Assembly: GCA_019058315.1 (NCBI GenBank)
Contig: JAHPZH010000003.1
Location: 652,451-716,450 of the forward strand
Source: Candidatus Helarchaeota archaeon
GTDB lineage: Archaea > Asgardarchaeota > Lokiarchaeia > Helarchaeales > RDOG01
Direction: 5' to 3'
DNA: 64,000 nt
How positions within the stretch are numbered: position 1 is the first letter of the stretch; the number at the start of each line of letters is the position of its first letter. The notes under the pieces are model-generated. The model saw only the letters and a list, made by a program, of their open reading frames with translations, had not been told where the DNA came from and ran no database searches. Below are positions 22,900 to 47,720 of this stretch, in pieces. A program made the position numbers and the translations under genes.

Positions 22900-23337
22900 A
22901 TGAGTGGCGAATTCAATCCTCGCATTGTAGCATTCCTCTGCAATTGGTGCGGATATGCGGGGGCTGATCTGGCAGGAGTAAGCCGATTTCAATATCCTCC
23001 CACAATCCGTATTATTCGAGTAATGTGTTCGGGCAGAATCCAACCTTCATTTGTTCTCGAAGCATTTGAAAAAGGAGCAGACGGAGTATTAGTCTGCGGG
23101 TGACACATTGGAGATTGCCATTATATTCATGGAAATGAATATGCAAAGGAAAGAATAGAGATGACAAAAAGTCTGCTGGAAACTGTTGGAATTAATCCAA
23201 AGAGATTGCGTCTTGAATGGATTTCTGCAGCTGAAGGACAGAAGTTTGCATCTTTAATACATGAATTTACAAATGATATTAAACAATTAGGACCATTTGC
23301 AACTAAAAGTAAAAAGGTTGAAATACCAAATAAATAG
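22900..23337 (+). CDS. mvhD: hydrogenase iron-sulfur subunit MvhD/VhuD, selenoprotein (UGA at 23101-23103)
   Basis: [22 protein letters not shown]; in-frame TGA at the conserved Cys of GCHxGDCHY; frame continues (HIGDCHY...[12 protein letters not shown]) to TAG at 23335-23337; 145 aa. Confidence 0.93.
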
Positions 23338-23341
23338 TATA

Positions 23342-23409
23342 TTAAAGTTGGATGATTCACATCTGAAAAATTAATAGATGTGATGAGATGGCCGCAAGCC
23401 AAACTTTAA
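23342..23409 (+). promoter_or_regulatory. SECIS element in mvhD 3'-UTR
   Basis: Outer stem TTAAAGTT/AACTTTAA; ATGAT...TGAG non-Watson-Crick core; stem TCACATCT/AGATGTGA; A-rich loop; extra hairpin TGGC-CGCAA-GCCA. Confidence 0.8.
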
Positions 23410-44011: not shown

Positions 44012-44057
44012 AAAAATAACCTAAAAAACAACTAAATTTTTTTAAAACACAGTTAAA

Positions 44058-44157
44058 TGGGGTTGCTGAGATTTGAACTCAGGATCACCTGCGCCCCAGG
44101 CAGGTATCATACCAATCTAGGGTTGAATTTTATTCAAACTAGCTAGACCACAACCCC
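44058..44157 (-). tRNA. tRNA-Pro(GGG) with 26-nt intron in the D-loop (44115-44140)
   Basis: Acceptor GGGGTTG/CAACCCC+A; anticodon arm CCTGC-CTGGGGC-GCAGG; T-arm CTGAG-TTCAAAT-CTCAG; removing the insert restores a normal D-loop AGCTTGGTA; CCA not encoded. Confidence 0.92.
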
Positions 44158-44190: not shown

Positions 44191-44277
44191 ATTAAGTTGG
44201 CGGCGATGTCTTGCAGACACATGCTCCATTCAGCTCCAATAACGGTTTCGCATCCTTTCATAGCTTTGCCGCTTAAT
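44191..44277 (-). promoter_or_regulatory. putative SECIS element in selD 3'-UTR
   Basis: GC-rich structured island: outer stem ATTAAG-CGGC/GCCG..CTTAAT, ATGA, ATGC-GAAA-CCGTT...AATGG-A-GCAT, hairpin GTGTC-TGCAA-GACAT. Confidence 0.65.
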
Positions 44278-44278
44278 T

Positions 44279-45325
44279 TTAAGTTTTTTGATACTCTATA
44301 ATTTCAATGTTTTCGTTAATATTAACCTTTCCAGTTCCACGTATTACTTTCCCAATGACATAAGGCTTAACTCCATTTTTCTTCAGAAGATTTATTAAAT
44401 TCTCTAGGTTATCTTTGCTTACAGAAATCAACATCCCACCAGCAGTTTCCGCTGCTTTACCTTCTAATAAAGGATATCCAAAGGTTTCTGCCATTTCTTT
44501 TGTCCCTTTAATAATTGGTAATTTTTCGATTATTATATCAACATTACTTTGCTTTGCCATCTCTTCAGCATGCCCTTTTATTCCAAACCCTGTGACATCA
44601 GTTGCTGCATTGACTGAAATTTCTTGCATGACCTTTGCAACGGGTTTATTTGAAGTTATCATTATATTAACAGCGATATCAATTGCTTTTTCCATTTTTT
44701 CTTGAGAAATCAATTCAAAAATTTCTTTCATAGGTTCGGGTTCTTTTATTAATCTATATGCAGCCATCGCCGGTTGAATTCCTAATGGTTTAGTTAATAA
44801 AAGAAAATCTCCGTCTTTAGCACCATTTAAATAAATAAGTTTATCTAGATCCGCGACAGCGATAGCACAACCACCAAGTAGAGGCCAAGGATTTTGAATT
44901 GATTGTCCTCCAACAATAAGACATCCTTCTTTCACACAAAATTCATGAAATCCTTTTAGCATTTCAGTTGCAATTATTTCAGGCATTTCTGGAGGATAAG
45001 CAATAAGCGAAACCATACTTAATGGATCCGGCCAGCCCATGGTATATATATCATTTAATACATTACATGCACAAATTTTACCTTGAATAACTGGATCGTC
45101 AATGATAGGGGTGAAAACATCAATTGTTTGAATGATTGCTAATTTTTCATTAATTTTTATAACTGCGGAATCGTCACCAATTCCTGCTAGAAGTCGTTCA
45201 TCTTTCACCATTGTTAAACCAGAATTTTTGAGTAATTTGGAAAGGTCATATTGAGGAATTTTACATGATCATCCATGAACTTGAACTGCTTTTGTTAAAC
45301 GGAATTCCTCAGTTACTGAATTCAC
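44279..45325 (-). CDS. selD: selenophosphate synthetase, selenoprotein (UGA at 45269-45271)
   Basis: Frame extends 5' of the listed ORF: FRLTKAVQVHG-U-SCKIP (GUxCK active site); GDDSAV, DVFTPIIDDP, TKPLG, TDVTGFG, ETAGGML; start codon uncertain (GTG at 45325). Confidence 0.95.
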
Positions 45326-45409: not shown

Positions 45410-46546
45410 CTATTTTTGTTCTTTTATCTTTAAAATTGATTTAAGTTCCTCGTGTAGTGATTCTTTCAAAGCATCTTTACTCTTTATTTGGTCAAATTTT
45501 TCAGTACTTTTTAATTCAAGTGTTGTTTCTGGAGAAATTGATTGTATTGATTTTTTAAGAAATTCAATCCATTCAATTGTATTTTGATTGGCTTTTTCGA
45601 GCATTAAAAATCGGGATTCAATTGAAGAGGTCAAGTTAATTAATAGATTTAAAACTTGTTCTATTGAAGATCCCAATTCTTTTCCTTTTAATCCTGCTGA
45701 ACCTGTAATAATTAGATCACGAATACCTTTTATTACAGTTTTACTATCTCCCAAGCTGTTATAAATACTGTAAGGCGTTATTTCATATTCAAAATCTTTA
45801 AATTGAAATATTTCCTTGATTTCTTTTGATAGAAATTCAAATCTTTCTTTAATTTGTTCATCATCTTTGATATCGGGATCCATTTTATTTATTATAATTA
45901 GAAATCTAGGATTTTCTTTCAATAGCTCAACAATATTAGTAATCTCTTTCAGATAATCCAATGAATTCTCAAATTTCGAGGGATCTTGAATATCTATAAC
46001 AAACATTAAAAATACAATATTTAAAAAGTATCTATCTGCATTTTGTATATATTCTTTCCTATAAATCTCTTGTCCACCCATATCCACCATTACATATTTT
46101 AAACCTTTCTTATCATCGAATATTTTTTGATTTGGACCTAATGTTGGTGGTAATTGATCAAATATATCCAATTTTAATTTATCCTGGATAATTCGGAATA
46201 TTGCGGTCTTTCCAGCGTTATCCAATCCTACAATTGAAATTTTTTTAGATCCTAAAAACTCACCAATTTTACCTTCAGAAATCATCTTTGAAATAAACAT
46301 CCATACGTTTACATCATACGGATCAACACCTAACACTTTTAATGTTAGGAACTTGGAGTCATCTATTTCCATTCTTACGAAATCTTCAATTTTTCTTGCT
46401 TTTAATACATTATACATGGTAAAAGCTGCCTTACTACTGACTCCTTTAAAATAAGTCAAGTCTAATTTTAAAATATCTTTTAAATCCTTAATTTTTTCTG
46501 GGATATCTATAATATCTTTAAGTCTTTCACGAATTGATTCATTCAA
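45410..46546 (-). CDS. HhH-like/Arf-like GTPase/coiled-coil protein (array copy 4)
   Basis: LDLTYFKGVSSKAA; GLDNAGKT, PTLG, DMGGQ, NKMD; C-terminal coiled coil and LHEELKSILK. Confidence 0.88.
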   Translation of the reverse strand: MNESIRERLKDIIDIPEKIKDLKDILKLDLTYFKGVSSKAAFTMYNVLKARKIEDFVRMEIDDSKFLTLKVLGVDPYDVNVWMFISKMISEGKIGEFLGSKKISIVGLDNAGKTAIFRIIQDKLKLDIFDQLPPTLGPNQKIFDDKKGLKYVMVDMGGQEIYRKEYIQNADRYFLNIVFLMFVIDIQDPSKFENSLDYLKEITNIVELLKENPRFLIIINKMDPDIKDDEQIKERFEFLSKEIKEIFQFKDFEYEITPYSIYNSLGDSKTVIKGIRDLIITGSAGLKGKELGSSIEQVLNLLINLTSSIESRFLMLEKANQNTIEWIEFLKKSIQSISPETTLELKSTEKFDQIKSKDALKESLHEELKSILKIKEQK

Positions 46547-46577: not shown

Positions 46578-47720
46578 TTATCCTATTTTTCTCATTTTTA
46601 ATAATTCCTTAAGTTCTGCTCGAAGAGATTGTTTTAAAGATTGAGTGTCTTGTAATTTTTTGAATCCTTTAGGGGCTTCTAATTTTGTAGGAAGTTCAGC
46701 TGGGATTTTAGGTTGAGGTGTTTTTGTATACGTACTCCATTCTCTAAAGTTTTGAATTGATTCTTCAATTTTTGAAAATCGTTCTTCCATCGTAGAACCA
46801 AAGGTGAGTACAATATTCATCATTCTTTCTAAGGATTCTATAACAAAATCTTTTAATTCTTGAAAACTTTCTGAATCAGTACTTAAAAAATCACGAATAT
46901 CTCTAACTACAGATTTATTATCCCCCAATGCATTAAAAATACTATAAGTTGTTATTTCATATTGGAAAGTTTTATCTTGTAGTATTTCATCTACCTTTTT
47001 TATTAAGTAGAGAACAGAACTTTGAATATCTTCTTGTTCCTTAATATCCGGATCTACTTTATGTATTATAACTAAAAATTCAGGATTTTCATTTAAAATT
47101 GACATAATTTTTATAATTTCTTCCAGATAGTGTAAAGCTTCCTCAAATTTATCTGGGTCTTGGACGTCAATAACAAAAATTAATAGACCAACTTTAAGAA
47201 AATACTTTTCAGCATGTTGGATATAGTCTTTTCTGTATGCTTGTTGACCACCCATATCTAAGATCATGTATTCAAAGCCAAGTTTTTCAATTACTTCTCT
47301 ATTAACACCTATTGTTGGTGCTAAACTACCAAATAAATCGATATTGACTTTATCTTGCAACACACGCAAAATAGCAGTTTTTCCAGCATTATCAAGACCC
47401 ACAAGAGATATTTTTCTCGGCCCAATATATTCTTCTATTTTACCTTTATTGAGGACTCTTGAAATAAAAACCCATACATTTAGGTCATAAGGATTAATTC
47501 CAAGAAATTTCAAATTCATGAATTCTTCTTCATTGATTTTTCTTTTTGCAAGGTCTTTTATTGTTTTAACATTTAGAACTTTTCGTAATACAGCAGCATC
47601 CTTAATACTGATTCCTTTGATGTGTGATAAATTAAGGTTTAAAATACGTTTAAGGGTTCTGACATTTTTTGGAATCTCAAGAAGATGTTCAAGCTTTTTG
47701 ACTATTGAATAACCCTTCAA
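46578..47720 (-). CDS. HhH-like/Arf-like GTPase/coiled-coil protein (array copy 3)
   Basis: LNLSHIKGISIKDA; GLDNAGKT, PTIG, DMGGQ, HKVD; Pro-rich linker; LRAELKELLKMRKI. Confidence 0.88.
   Translation of the reverse strand: MKGYSIVKKLEHLLEIPKNVRTLKRILNLNLSHIKGISIKDAAVLRKVLNVKTIKDLAKRKINEEEFMNLKFLGINPYDLNVWVFISRVLNKGKIEEYIGPRKISLVGLDNAGKTAILRVLQDKVNIDLFGSLAPTIGVNREVIEKLGFEYMILDMGGQQAYRKDYIQHAEKYFLKVGLLIFVIDVQDPDKFEEALHYLEEIIKIMSILNENPEFLVIIHKVDPDIKEQEDIQSSVLYLIKKVDEILQDKTFQYEITTYSIFNALGDNKSVVRDIRDFLSTDSESFQELKDFVIESLERMMNIVLTFGSTMEERFSKIEESIQNFREWSTYTKTPQPKIPAELPTKLEAPKGFKKLQDTQSLKQSLRAELKELLKMRKIG

Follow-up and report, generated by a model that had tools for sequence, protein, structure and literature searches.

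The 3′ untranslated region (UTR) of selD, the gene for selenophosphate synthetase (SPS), in an Asgard archaeal genome very probably carries a selenocysteine (Sec) insertion sequence (SECIS) of the SPS kind, or "type II", found in Lokiarchaeia, and comparison with related sequences predicts that it is built of a kink-turn, a helix II, an unpaired AAA bulge, a ministem, and a three-way junction with a third arm, H3. The DNA under study (the window) is a 64,000-nucleotide (nt) stretch of a Candidatus Helarchaeota archaeon (GenBank assembly GCA_019058315.1, contig JAHPZH010000003.1, positions 652,451 to 716,450), whose AT-rich, 5.8-Mb genome belongs to the Asgard class Lokiarchaeia. The element is a SECIS of a published kind, and its new parts are modest, namely the purine-rich helix II of its clade and the junction with the third arm. 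Its position behind a Sec gene, its conserved motifs, and the covariation of its closing helix (helix I or H1), C stem, ministem, and H3 are direct results, and homology to selD SECIS elsewhere in Lokiarchaeia is shown by way of its clade. An earlier note on this DNA, made from the letters alone, had read the same UTR as a possible hybrid between eukaryotic and archaeal SECIS; for the origin of the eukaryotic SECIS, our reading would remove that apparent hybrid and add a feature absent from eukaryotic SECIS.

Background

Eukaryote-like SECIS behind lokiarchaeial selD are already in print, as two surveys attest. In the text of the first (Mariotti et al. 2016, PMC4989117), the lokiSECIS consists of AUGA, a 9-base-pair (bp) stem, an 11-nt loop opening with adenines, and GA, while in the SPS (selD) lokiSECIS the main stem is shorter and a further stem sits at the apex, much as in the eukaryotic type II SECIS; the published lokiSECIS model is described as having missed SPS. 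The second (Huang, Xiao & Zhang 2024, PMC11227280) surveyed more than 400 Asgard genomes and, according to its text, found eukaryotic-SECIS-like (eSECIS-like) elements of types I and II, with selD mainly carrying type II, under a descriptor that sets the upper stem at 7-15 bp and tolerates no more than 2 mismatches in it; "euryarchaeal-like" GAA_A structures are there described as rare, non-conserved, and probably non-functional in Asgard archaea. The texts of both papers give no SECIS-binding protein SBP2 as known from Asgard archaea. A hairpin of the H3 type, its tetraloop, and the junction are absent from the text of these two papers and of a 2026 review (PMC13188914), whose figures or supplements could show them, and our literature search returned no paper joining SECIS, Asgard, and "three-way junction", with "lokiSECIS" appearing in the 2016 paper only.

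The selD gene and the predicted parts of its SECIS

The selD coding sequence has an in-frame UGA (Sec) at codon 19 (45271-45269) within the motif VHG-U-SCK, and SelD homologues match the Pfam families AIRS and AIRS_C. Both the TGA and the SECIS element are retained in 6/6 close relatives, and the element lies in the 3′ UTR close behind the Sec gene, as type II SPS lokiSECIS do. In the favored fold the gene and the predicted parts of the element, read 5′ to 3′ along the minus strand, are as follows.

44279 to 45325, minus strand: selD coding sequence, with GTG start at 45325 and TAA stop at 44281-44279
44200 to 44272, minus strand: whole selD SECIS, beginning 6 nt past the stop codon, about 1 kb 3′ of the UGA
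44268 to 44272, minus strand: helix I 5′ strand GCGGC, pairing with 44204-44200; 100% paired in the 7 related sequences, with one compensatory pair
44258 to 44264, minus strand: bulged strand of the putative kink-turn, with C-stem GC (44264-44263), UAU loop (44262-44260), G (44259), and A (44258)
44250 to 44257, minus strand: helix II 5′ strand AAGGAUGC, opposing 44234-44227
44246 to 44249, minus strand: GAAA bulge, its AAA invariant in the clade and aligning with the invariant AAAC of 34 selD SECIS of a related family
44236 to 44245, minus strand: ministem CCG/UGG (44245-44243 with 44238-44236) and apical loop UUAU (44242-44239), from RNAalifold on the clade alignment
44227 to 44234, minus strand: helix II 3′ strand GCUGAAUG, from the clade alignment and the alignment to model R1
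44223 to 44226, minus strand: non-bulged strand of the putative kink-turn, with the 3′ GA (44226-44225) and then C-stem GC (44224-44223)
44206 to 44220, minus strand: third arm H3, GUGUC-UGCAA-GACAU, between kink-turn and closing strand; 94% paired in the clade
44200 to 44204, minus strand: helix I 3′ (closing) strand GCCGC, from the same alignment and RNAalifold

The published "AUGA" corresponds to 44261-44258, of which UGA is invariant in the clade, and the C stem joins GC at 44264-44263 to GC at 44224-44223. Above it, the tandem pairs are G.A (44259 with 44225) and A.G (44258 with 44226). The GGAGC that contains the 3′ GA is likewise invariant across the clade.

Comparative fold of the selD element

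Two sets of sequences were drawn on. The 60 nearest genomes of the GTDB yielded 40 selD 3′ UTRs, and the 34 selD UTRs of a related family (f4) align cleanly (alignment A3), while a protein-cluster search for the closest relatives (SelD identity 74-87%) provided six contigs, which together with the window make up the seven sequences of alignment A1. By direct alignment the window element joins this clade with 81% mean column identity. Taken singly, the selD UTR sequence has a folding energy like that of its shuffles (z = 0.14), so the case for the fold rests on comparison of related sequences and not on energy.

Every string quoted in the earlier note is present at its minus-strand place, and the related sequences support four parts of its drawing, which are upheld: the outer stem, AUGA, the closing strand, and the hairpin GUGUC-UGCAA-GACAU. 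The two folds part at the inner stem, which had been drawn as AUGC-GAAA-CCGUU-(10 nt)-AAUGG-A-GCAU. Across A1 the kink-turn fold leaves 94.7% of cells paired against 87.9% for the alternative, and it is backed by compensatory changes at pairs 29-45 (CG in 3 sequences, UA in 3, UG in 1), within helix II, and 36-41 (GC in 4, GU in 2, AU in 1), within the ministem. The AUGC/GCAU helix of the earlier drawing is 68% paired and its CCGUU/AAUGG helix 85%, and the sole double-sided change that this drawing can claim is that of a lone sequence at pair 27-58, a position left unpaired in five others. Applied blind to A1, RNAalifold recovers helix I, H3, and a CCG/YGG ministem, and neither of the two inner helices. 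Hence the six close relatives, together with the 34 f4 UTRs below, favor an inner fold of kink-turn, purine-rich helix II, GAAA bulge, and CCG/UGG ministem.

Helix II itself is unusual. Of its 8 positions in the window, 3 are Watson-Crick pairs and 5 are non-Watson-Crick oppositions, four of the latter being purine.purine (including a second tandem G.A/A.G) and the fifth a U.U that is A-U in 4/6 relatives, so that most clade members have 4/8 such positions where the window has 5/8. Because this helix holds a run of purine.purine oppositions in the clade, both the earlier note and energy-based folding drew another inner stem. The purines G25, A26, and A49 (A1 numbering) are invariant and G48 is G in 6/7 sequences, a pattern that points to selection rather than decay. 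The latter explanation, in which the selD SECIS would be losing function, with translation of selD either ending at the UGA or passing it by other means, draws on the count of 3/8 Watson-Crick pairs and on the weak scores that the element receives with models built from relatives. Nonetheless, we regard it as extremely improbable: all six relatives, whose SelD proteins share 74-87% identity with that of the window, preserve the full-length frame with its TGA as well as the purine-rich helix II, and at least ten other SECIS-bearing selenoprotein genes in the genome depend on SelD.

Two wider searches were made. A metagenome scan with the SelD protein returned distant relatives only (23-25%), and an exact-pattern scan of genome contigs for the clade motif GAAUGGAGC..UGUCNGCAAG gave 74 chance bacterial matches and no Asgard record.

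Support from selD elements of other Lokiarchaeia

The f4 elements share one order of parts, running from GAUG through a 2-bp C stem, N-A-U, GA, AAUAAGC, a (U/G/A)AAA bulge with an invariant C, the ministem, GCUUAUU, GA, the second C-stem strand, and H3 to CAUC. All five helices covary in this set, the C stem included, with double-sided changes at 13/20 pairs and compensatory changes at 4/4 pairs of H3, and none of 500 shuffles equals the percentage paired, the number of compensatory pairs, or the covariation score. Helix II of f4, AAUAAGC/GCUUAUU, stands at the position of the clade's AAGGAUGC/GCUGAAUG; set side by side, "AUGA AAUAAGC UAAAC ... GCUUAUU GAG" in f4 faces "AUGA AAGGAAGC GAAAC ... 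GCUGAAUG GAG" in the clade. The clade-specific change amounts to three Watson-Crick pairs of helix II turned into G.A, G.A, and A.G. Further, a covariance model built from A3 (R1) aligns one clade member (L045) in exactly the proposed register (E 1.6e-4), and it places AUG-GAG-CAU and H3 of the window on the GA and H3 of the model.

This correspondence identifies the GAAA as the A-rich bulge known from published SPS lokiSECIS of type II, not as a Methanococcales GAA/A loop, and it bears on the explanation that the earlier note had put forward, i.e., a Methanococcales-type apical module set on a eukaryote-like AUGA that lacks a 3′ GA, making the two UTRs of the window a hybrid family and an evolutionary intermediate. 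Such a hybrid has attractions, as its stems are drawable with the better nearest-neighbor energy (-15.3 kcal/mol), one of them pairs in 85% of clade cells, there are two C-G pairs after the GAAA, as there are in euryarchaeal SECIS, and rare GAA_A-bearing structures are reported from Asgard UTRs in the text of PMC11227280. However, that same text judges those structures non-conserved and probably non-functional, and the details run against the hybrid: the other inner helix is poorly paired, RNAalifold predicts neither, the bulge is GAAA/A rather than GAA/A, and in 34 other selD SECIS, which lack such flanking helices, a UAAA/AAAA bulge stands in alignment with the GAAA. The 3′ GA, of which no clean instance had been evident to the earlier reader, is found at 44226-44225 within the invariant AAUG-GA-GC. 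The hybrid therefore loses its support together with the GAA/A loop, eukaryote-like SECIS of Lokiarchaeia having been in print since 2016, and we consider it quite improbable.

Against the published type II descriptor, the type II reading fares as follows. The AUGA and GA that flank the upper stem are invariant in the 7 sequences, agreeing with 5′ [A/G]UGA and 3′ [G/A]A, and the apical part (GAAA + A bulge, CCG/UGG, UUAU) agrees with the ranges set for the bulge with its unpaired adenines (4-12 nt), the ministem (2-8 bp), and the apical loop (2-6 nt).

Several observations weigh against the type II reading. The upper stem departs from the same descriptor, as 5/8 of its helix II positions are non-Watson-Crick where at most 2 mismatches are allowed, so the window element fails the published descriptor and the variant would be missed by it. 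Nearest-neighbor energy prefers the earlier drawing (-15.3 vs -11.5 kcal/mol), since non-Watson-Crick pairs get no credit; the CCGUU/AAUGG helix of that drawing still pairs in 85% of cases, and the selD UTR as a whole is no better folded than its shuffles. Covariation within the clade is modest, as 18/500 shuffles of the 7 sequences match its covariation score. With R1 the window element obtains a weak score of 9.6 bits (E 6.9 when 96 kb were searched, 0.011 for 151 nt), and R1 misaligns the 5′ half of the element. Finally, we infer from sequence the function of Asgard SECIS, the kinked geometry, and any binding partner.

One f4-genus genome (G029) carries behind selD a type I SECIS (L021:2419-2488, plus strand) with a 9-bp stem and the loop AAAAAUGUUAG in place of the usual type II, which indicates that the SECIS type was swapped within an orthologous gene. 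Separately, UUGA replaces AUGA/GUGA at the core of L078 (G000:C5:666140-666270, this genome's 2-Sec vhuD) and of three f4 selD UTRs (L013, L024, and L028), suggesting that kink-turn position L2 is not limited to a purine, unlike in the published [A/G]UGA descriptors.

The third arm H3 and the C stem

The earlier note had singled out a hairpin with a YGCAA loop as a determinant shared by the selD UTR and the UTR of an mvhD gene (23342-23409, plus strand). As a general and covarying feature this hairpin stands; YGCAA proved to be a local spelling of a wider loop motif, H-G-C-R-H. Since MvhD orthologues are mostly Cys forms in the relatives, they were set aside as a comparison set in favor of the 2-Sec VhuD paralogue, whose loci were picked by protein homology from 29 relatives and this genome; the search for elements inside these loci used R2, a covariance model of type I SECIS with H3 built in. 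As the alignments made with the covariance model (A5/A6) misplace H3, the hairpin was detected by script and its pairs were not counted on those alignments.

All 39 type I SECIS from the VhuD loci and the genome's own elements have an H3 of at least 4 bp, with 26 different stem sequences among them, and the mean chance of an equal H3-like hairpin in shuffles is 0.116 per element. In the full sample of 80 elements, which joins type I with both selD sets and covers this genome along with about 60 related ones, 78 have an H3 of at least 4 bp. Anchored on the central G of the loop (n = 78), position -1 is never G, position +1 is C in 72, position +2 is a purine in 75, and position +3 is never G; the commonest loops are GCAA (30), GCAC (19), and GCGA (11).

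The C stem, of 2 and sometimes 3 bp, is formed by the nucleotides between helix I and AUGA and those between GA and H3. Among the 39 type I elements its position -1b.-1n is paired in 38 (GC 17, UA 14, UG 3, AU 3, GU 1) and its position -2b.-2n in 32, against 17-25 and 6-10 in shifted registers. In type I and f4 selD elements alike, the 3-nt loop reads N-A-U and GA/GA is invariant. The window agrees with the standard kink-turn at the level of sequence, with GC/GC, UAU, and GA/GA followed by A.G. Taken together, the C stem and the N-A-U loop suggest that "AUGA" is L2, L3, G1b, and A2b of a standard kink-turn seated on a three-way junction. By this comparison H3 is a real, covarying, and general arm which, with the closing helix, is predicted to make a three-way junction beside the kink-turn.

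Alternatively, H3 might be a UTR signal of its own, e.g., a terminator, a hairpin that stabilizes the RNA end, or a signal tied to processing or to the promoter of the tRNA-Pro that follows selD in the window and in 5/6 close relatives, and small G-C-rich hairpins are indeed common as 3′-end elements. Yet in 78/80 elements H3 lies inside H1, right after the C stem, behind unrelated genes without a nearby tRNA, no T-run follows the hairpin, and the loop motif is conserved across gene families, all of which make a separate signal very unlikely.

Comparison with known SECIS and kink-turn systems

The nearest published relatives are the SPS lokiSECIS and Asgard type II elements (PMC4989117 Fig. 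5; PMC11227280), which occupy the same 3′-UTR site behind a Sec-encoding selD. With the SPS lokiSECIS the window element shares the AUGA...GA core, a short upper stem, unpaired adenines before an apical ministem, and a G/C-containing lower stem; it differs in that the upper stem of this clade is broken by a conserved 3x3 purine loop, GGA/GAA. The text of those papers gives an internal loop and a lower stem for this region, without a 2-bp C stem, a 3-nt bulge, or a side hairpin with a GCR loop. The type I lokiSECIS is matched by the mvhD element and nine others of the genome, with which selD shares the putative kink-turn, H1, and H3, whereas selD has a bulge and ministem instead of the 11-nt loop and is missed by R2.

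More distant systems show partial likeness. Eukaryotic SECIS of form 2 (RF00031) have in common with the selD element the AUGA/GA core, an AAR-like A motif, a ministem, the 3′-UTR site, and an action distance of about 1 kb, but helix II of selD is far shorter and the 3′ strand carries an extra side hairpin below the core. In a search of the window against Rfam, no hit attained the gathering score of its family, and no SECIS family matches the selD or mvhD element at E <= 10. The euryarchaeal GAA_A SECIS of Methanococcales and Methanopyrus likewise occupies the 3′ UTR, and a purine-rich asymmetric loop beside G-C pairs can be drawn here too; in our element, however, the loop is GAAA/A, the framing helices are not conserved, and the kink-turn and AAA bulge are conserved instead.

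Kink-turns and k-junctions as described in the text of Wang et al. (2014, PMC4005666) have the same C stem, 3-nt bulge, tandem G.A/A.G, and a non-canonical helix opening with A.G. In the k-junction of the TPP riboswitch, as that text gives it, the third helix is likewise on the non-bulged strand; by the same account the third helix of a k-junction enters directly opposite the loop, while 2-3 C-stem pairs would intervene here, the likeness being one of sequence.

Proposed mechanism and significance

We propose that, through the 3′-UTR SECIS of selD, the UGA about 1 kb upstream (45271-45269) would be decoded by the ribosome as selenocysteine. In the predicted structure the kink-turn would lead to helix II, the unpaired AAA bulge, and the small ministem, and the short C stem would end below the kink-turn in a three-way junction of the closing helix H1 and of H3, whose loop carries the conserved G-C-purine. 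By analogy with SECIS and kink-turn biology, the kink-turn and AAA may recruit the Sec-specific elongation factor together with Sec-tRNA, either directly or through an L7Ae/SBP2-like protein. The junction with H3 might hold the C stem, which is very short, in a set orientation, and the H3 loop might serve as a second contact for a protein, for the ribosome, or for a tertiary RNA interaction.

Going further, it is conceivable, though rather doubtful, that lokiarchaeial SECIS form a structural class of their own rather than shortened eukaryotic SECIS, with a canonical kink-turn, a 2-bp C stem on a three-way junction, and H3 with its H-G-C-R-H loop as a second specificity determinant, in which H3 could dock a SECIS-binding factor or the ribosome and, in selD, contact the purine loop of helix II. 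If this were true, eukaryotes would have lost the H3 arm when SBP2 took over.

The findings bear on how Asgard archaea recruit the Sec machinery, and a model with covariation backing for its kink-turn, 2-bp C stem, three-way junction, and GCR-loop arm gives mutants and baits for a search for the binding factor. They also bear on annotation, in that published descriptors (at most 2 upper-stem mismatches, no side arm) miss variants such as this selD clade, a variant that could pass for an archaeal-type GAA_A element.

The mvhD element and other type I SECIS of the genome

The second SECIS of the window is a textbook type I lokiSECIS behind an mvhD/vhuD-like gene, and its minimum-energy fold is the three-way junction.

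22900 to 23337, plus strand: mvhD/vhuD-like selenoprotein gene, with UGA at 23101-23103 in VLVCG-U-HIGDCHY
23342 to 23409, plus strand: mvhD type I SECIS
23342 to 23349 with 23402 to 23409, plus strand: helix I, UUAAAGUU/AACUUUAA
23352 to 23355, plus strand: AUGA
23356 to 23364 with 23376 to 23384, plus strand: helix II, 9 positions
23365 to 23375, plus strand: 11-nt A-rich loop, GAAAAAUUAAU
23385 to 23386, plus strand: 3′ GA
23389 to 23401, plus strand: H3, UGGC-CGCAA-GCCA, with the closing strand directly after

The order of parts that the earlier note saw in both UTRs is confirmed, each having a closing helix, AUGA, an upper helix, a side hairpin with a GCA-type loop, and the closing strand. 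A single covariance model for the two, which it had also envisaged, does not serve: R2 gives the mvhD element 75.8 bits, its only match in the window with E < 0.01, and does not report the selD element at E <= 5. A reading of the mvhD element as a C/D small RNA was rejected, as it obtained only chance-level matches to C/D-box snoRNAs (E 3-8).

Pattern scans, RNAfold, and R2 gave ten type I SECIS genome-wide, mvhD included. All ten combine helix I and the closing strand with an AUGA-type core (GUGA in one and UUGA in one), a helix II of 9 positions, GA, and H3; 8/10 have the 11-nt A-rich loop and with it the exact 9+11+9 geometry, and the loop of L037 has 14 nt. As the earlier note had expected, the SECIS elements of this genome follow genes with an in-frame UGA: 10/10 type I elements stand behind an open reading frame (ORF) with an in-frame TGA, encoding HdrA, a 2-Sec VhuD, a DsbA-like protein, and several small proteins. 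A strict descriptor (9+11+9, A-rich loop, H3, H1) has 15 matches in the genome and 3 when the genome is reversed, while loose descriptors are swamped by chance in so AT-rich a genome (151 real vs 106 decoy; 592 vs 340). Run on 150 pre-filtered candidates out of 13,757 in the genome, R2 returned its four training elements and weak matches only, of which L084 and L085 were dropped, having no Sec gene ahead.

Some of these elements follow small ORFs. At G000:C5:240985-241395 (plus strand; L083:1085-1495), a 137-aa ORF with one in-frame TGA, the motif TSAI-U-GTGGSD, and the end GGGC is followed after 12 nt by a full type I SECIS (L035); no homologue was found among the 60 nearest genomes, and the ORF is a candidate lineage-specific selenoprotein. 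Two further small ORFs have a single in-frame UGA each and their own SECIS (L032 and L033). On the minus strand of G000:C2, upstream of L079, an ORF reads ...TPDAGC-UGA-UGA-NEID..., with the SECIS about 100 nt past both TGAs. Further strong type I matches (40-50 bits), all with H3, are L119:3219-3289 (minus), L094:1395-1464 (plus), and L098:1940-2010 (minus); these matches stand no more than about 1.5 kb away from 2-Sec vhuD genes in relatives, so Sec genes appear to cluster.

Neighboring genes of selD

A tRNA-Pro(GGG) gene lies 43 nt 3′ of the selD SECIS (44056-44157, minus strand). It holds a 26-nt intron (44117-44142) in the D-loop region with CTAG repeats on both flanks; the intron-bearing form is called by neither ARAGORN nor Rfam, and once the 26 nt are deleted in silico ARAGORN calls tRNA-Pro(GGG). 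The order selD-tRNA-Pro is conserved in 5/6 close relatives, in one of which (L047) the tRNA-Pro has no intron. Directly upstream of selD are two tandem genes of about 380 aa (45410-46546 and 46578-47720, minus strand), each with a GLDNAGKT P-loop. Their homologous neighbors in relatives match the Pfam families Arf, Ras, Gtr1_RagA, and SRPRB, from which the tandem genes appear to be Asgard-type small GTPases with long N-terminal extensions.

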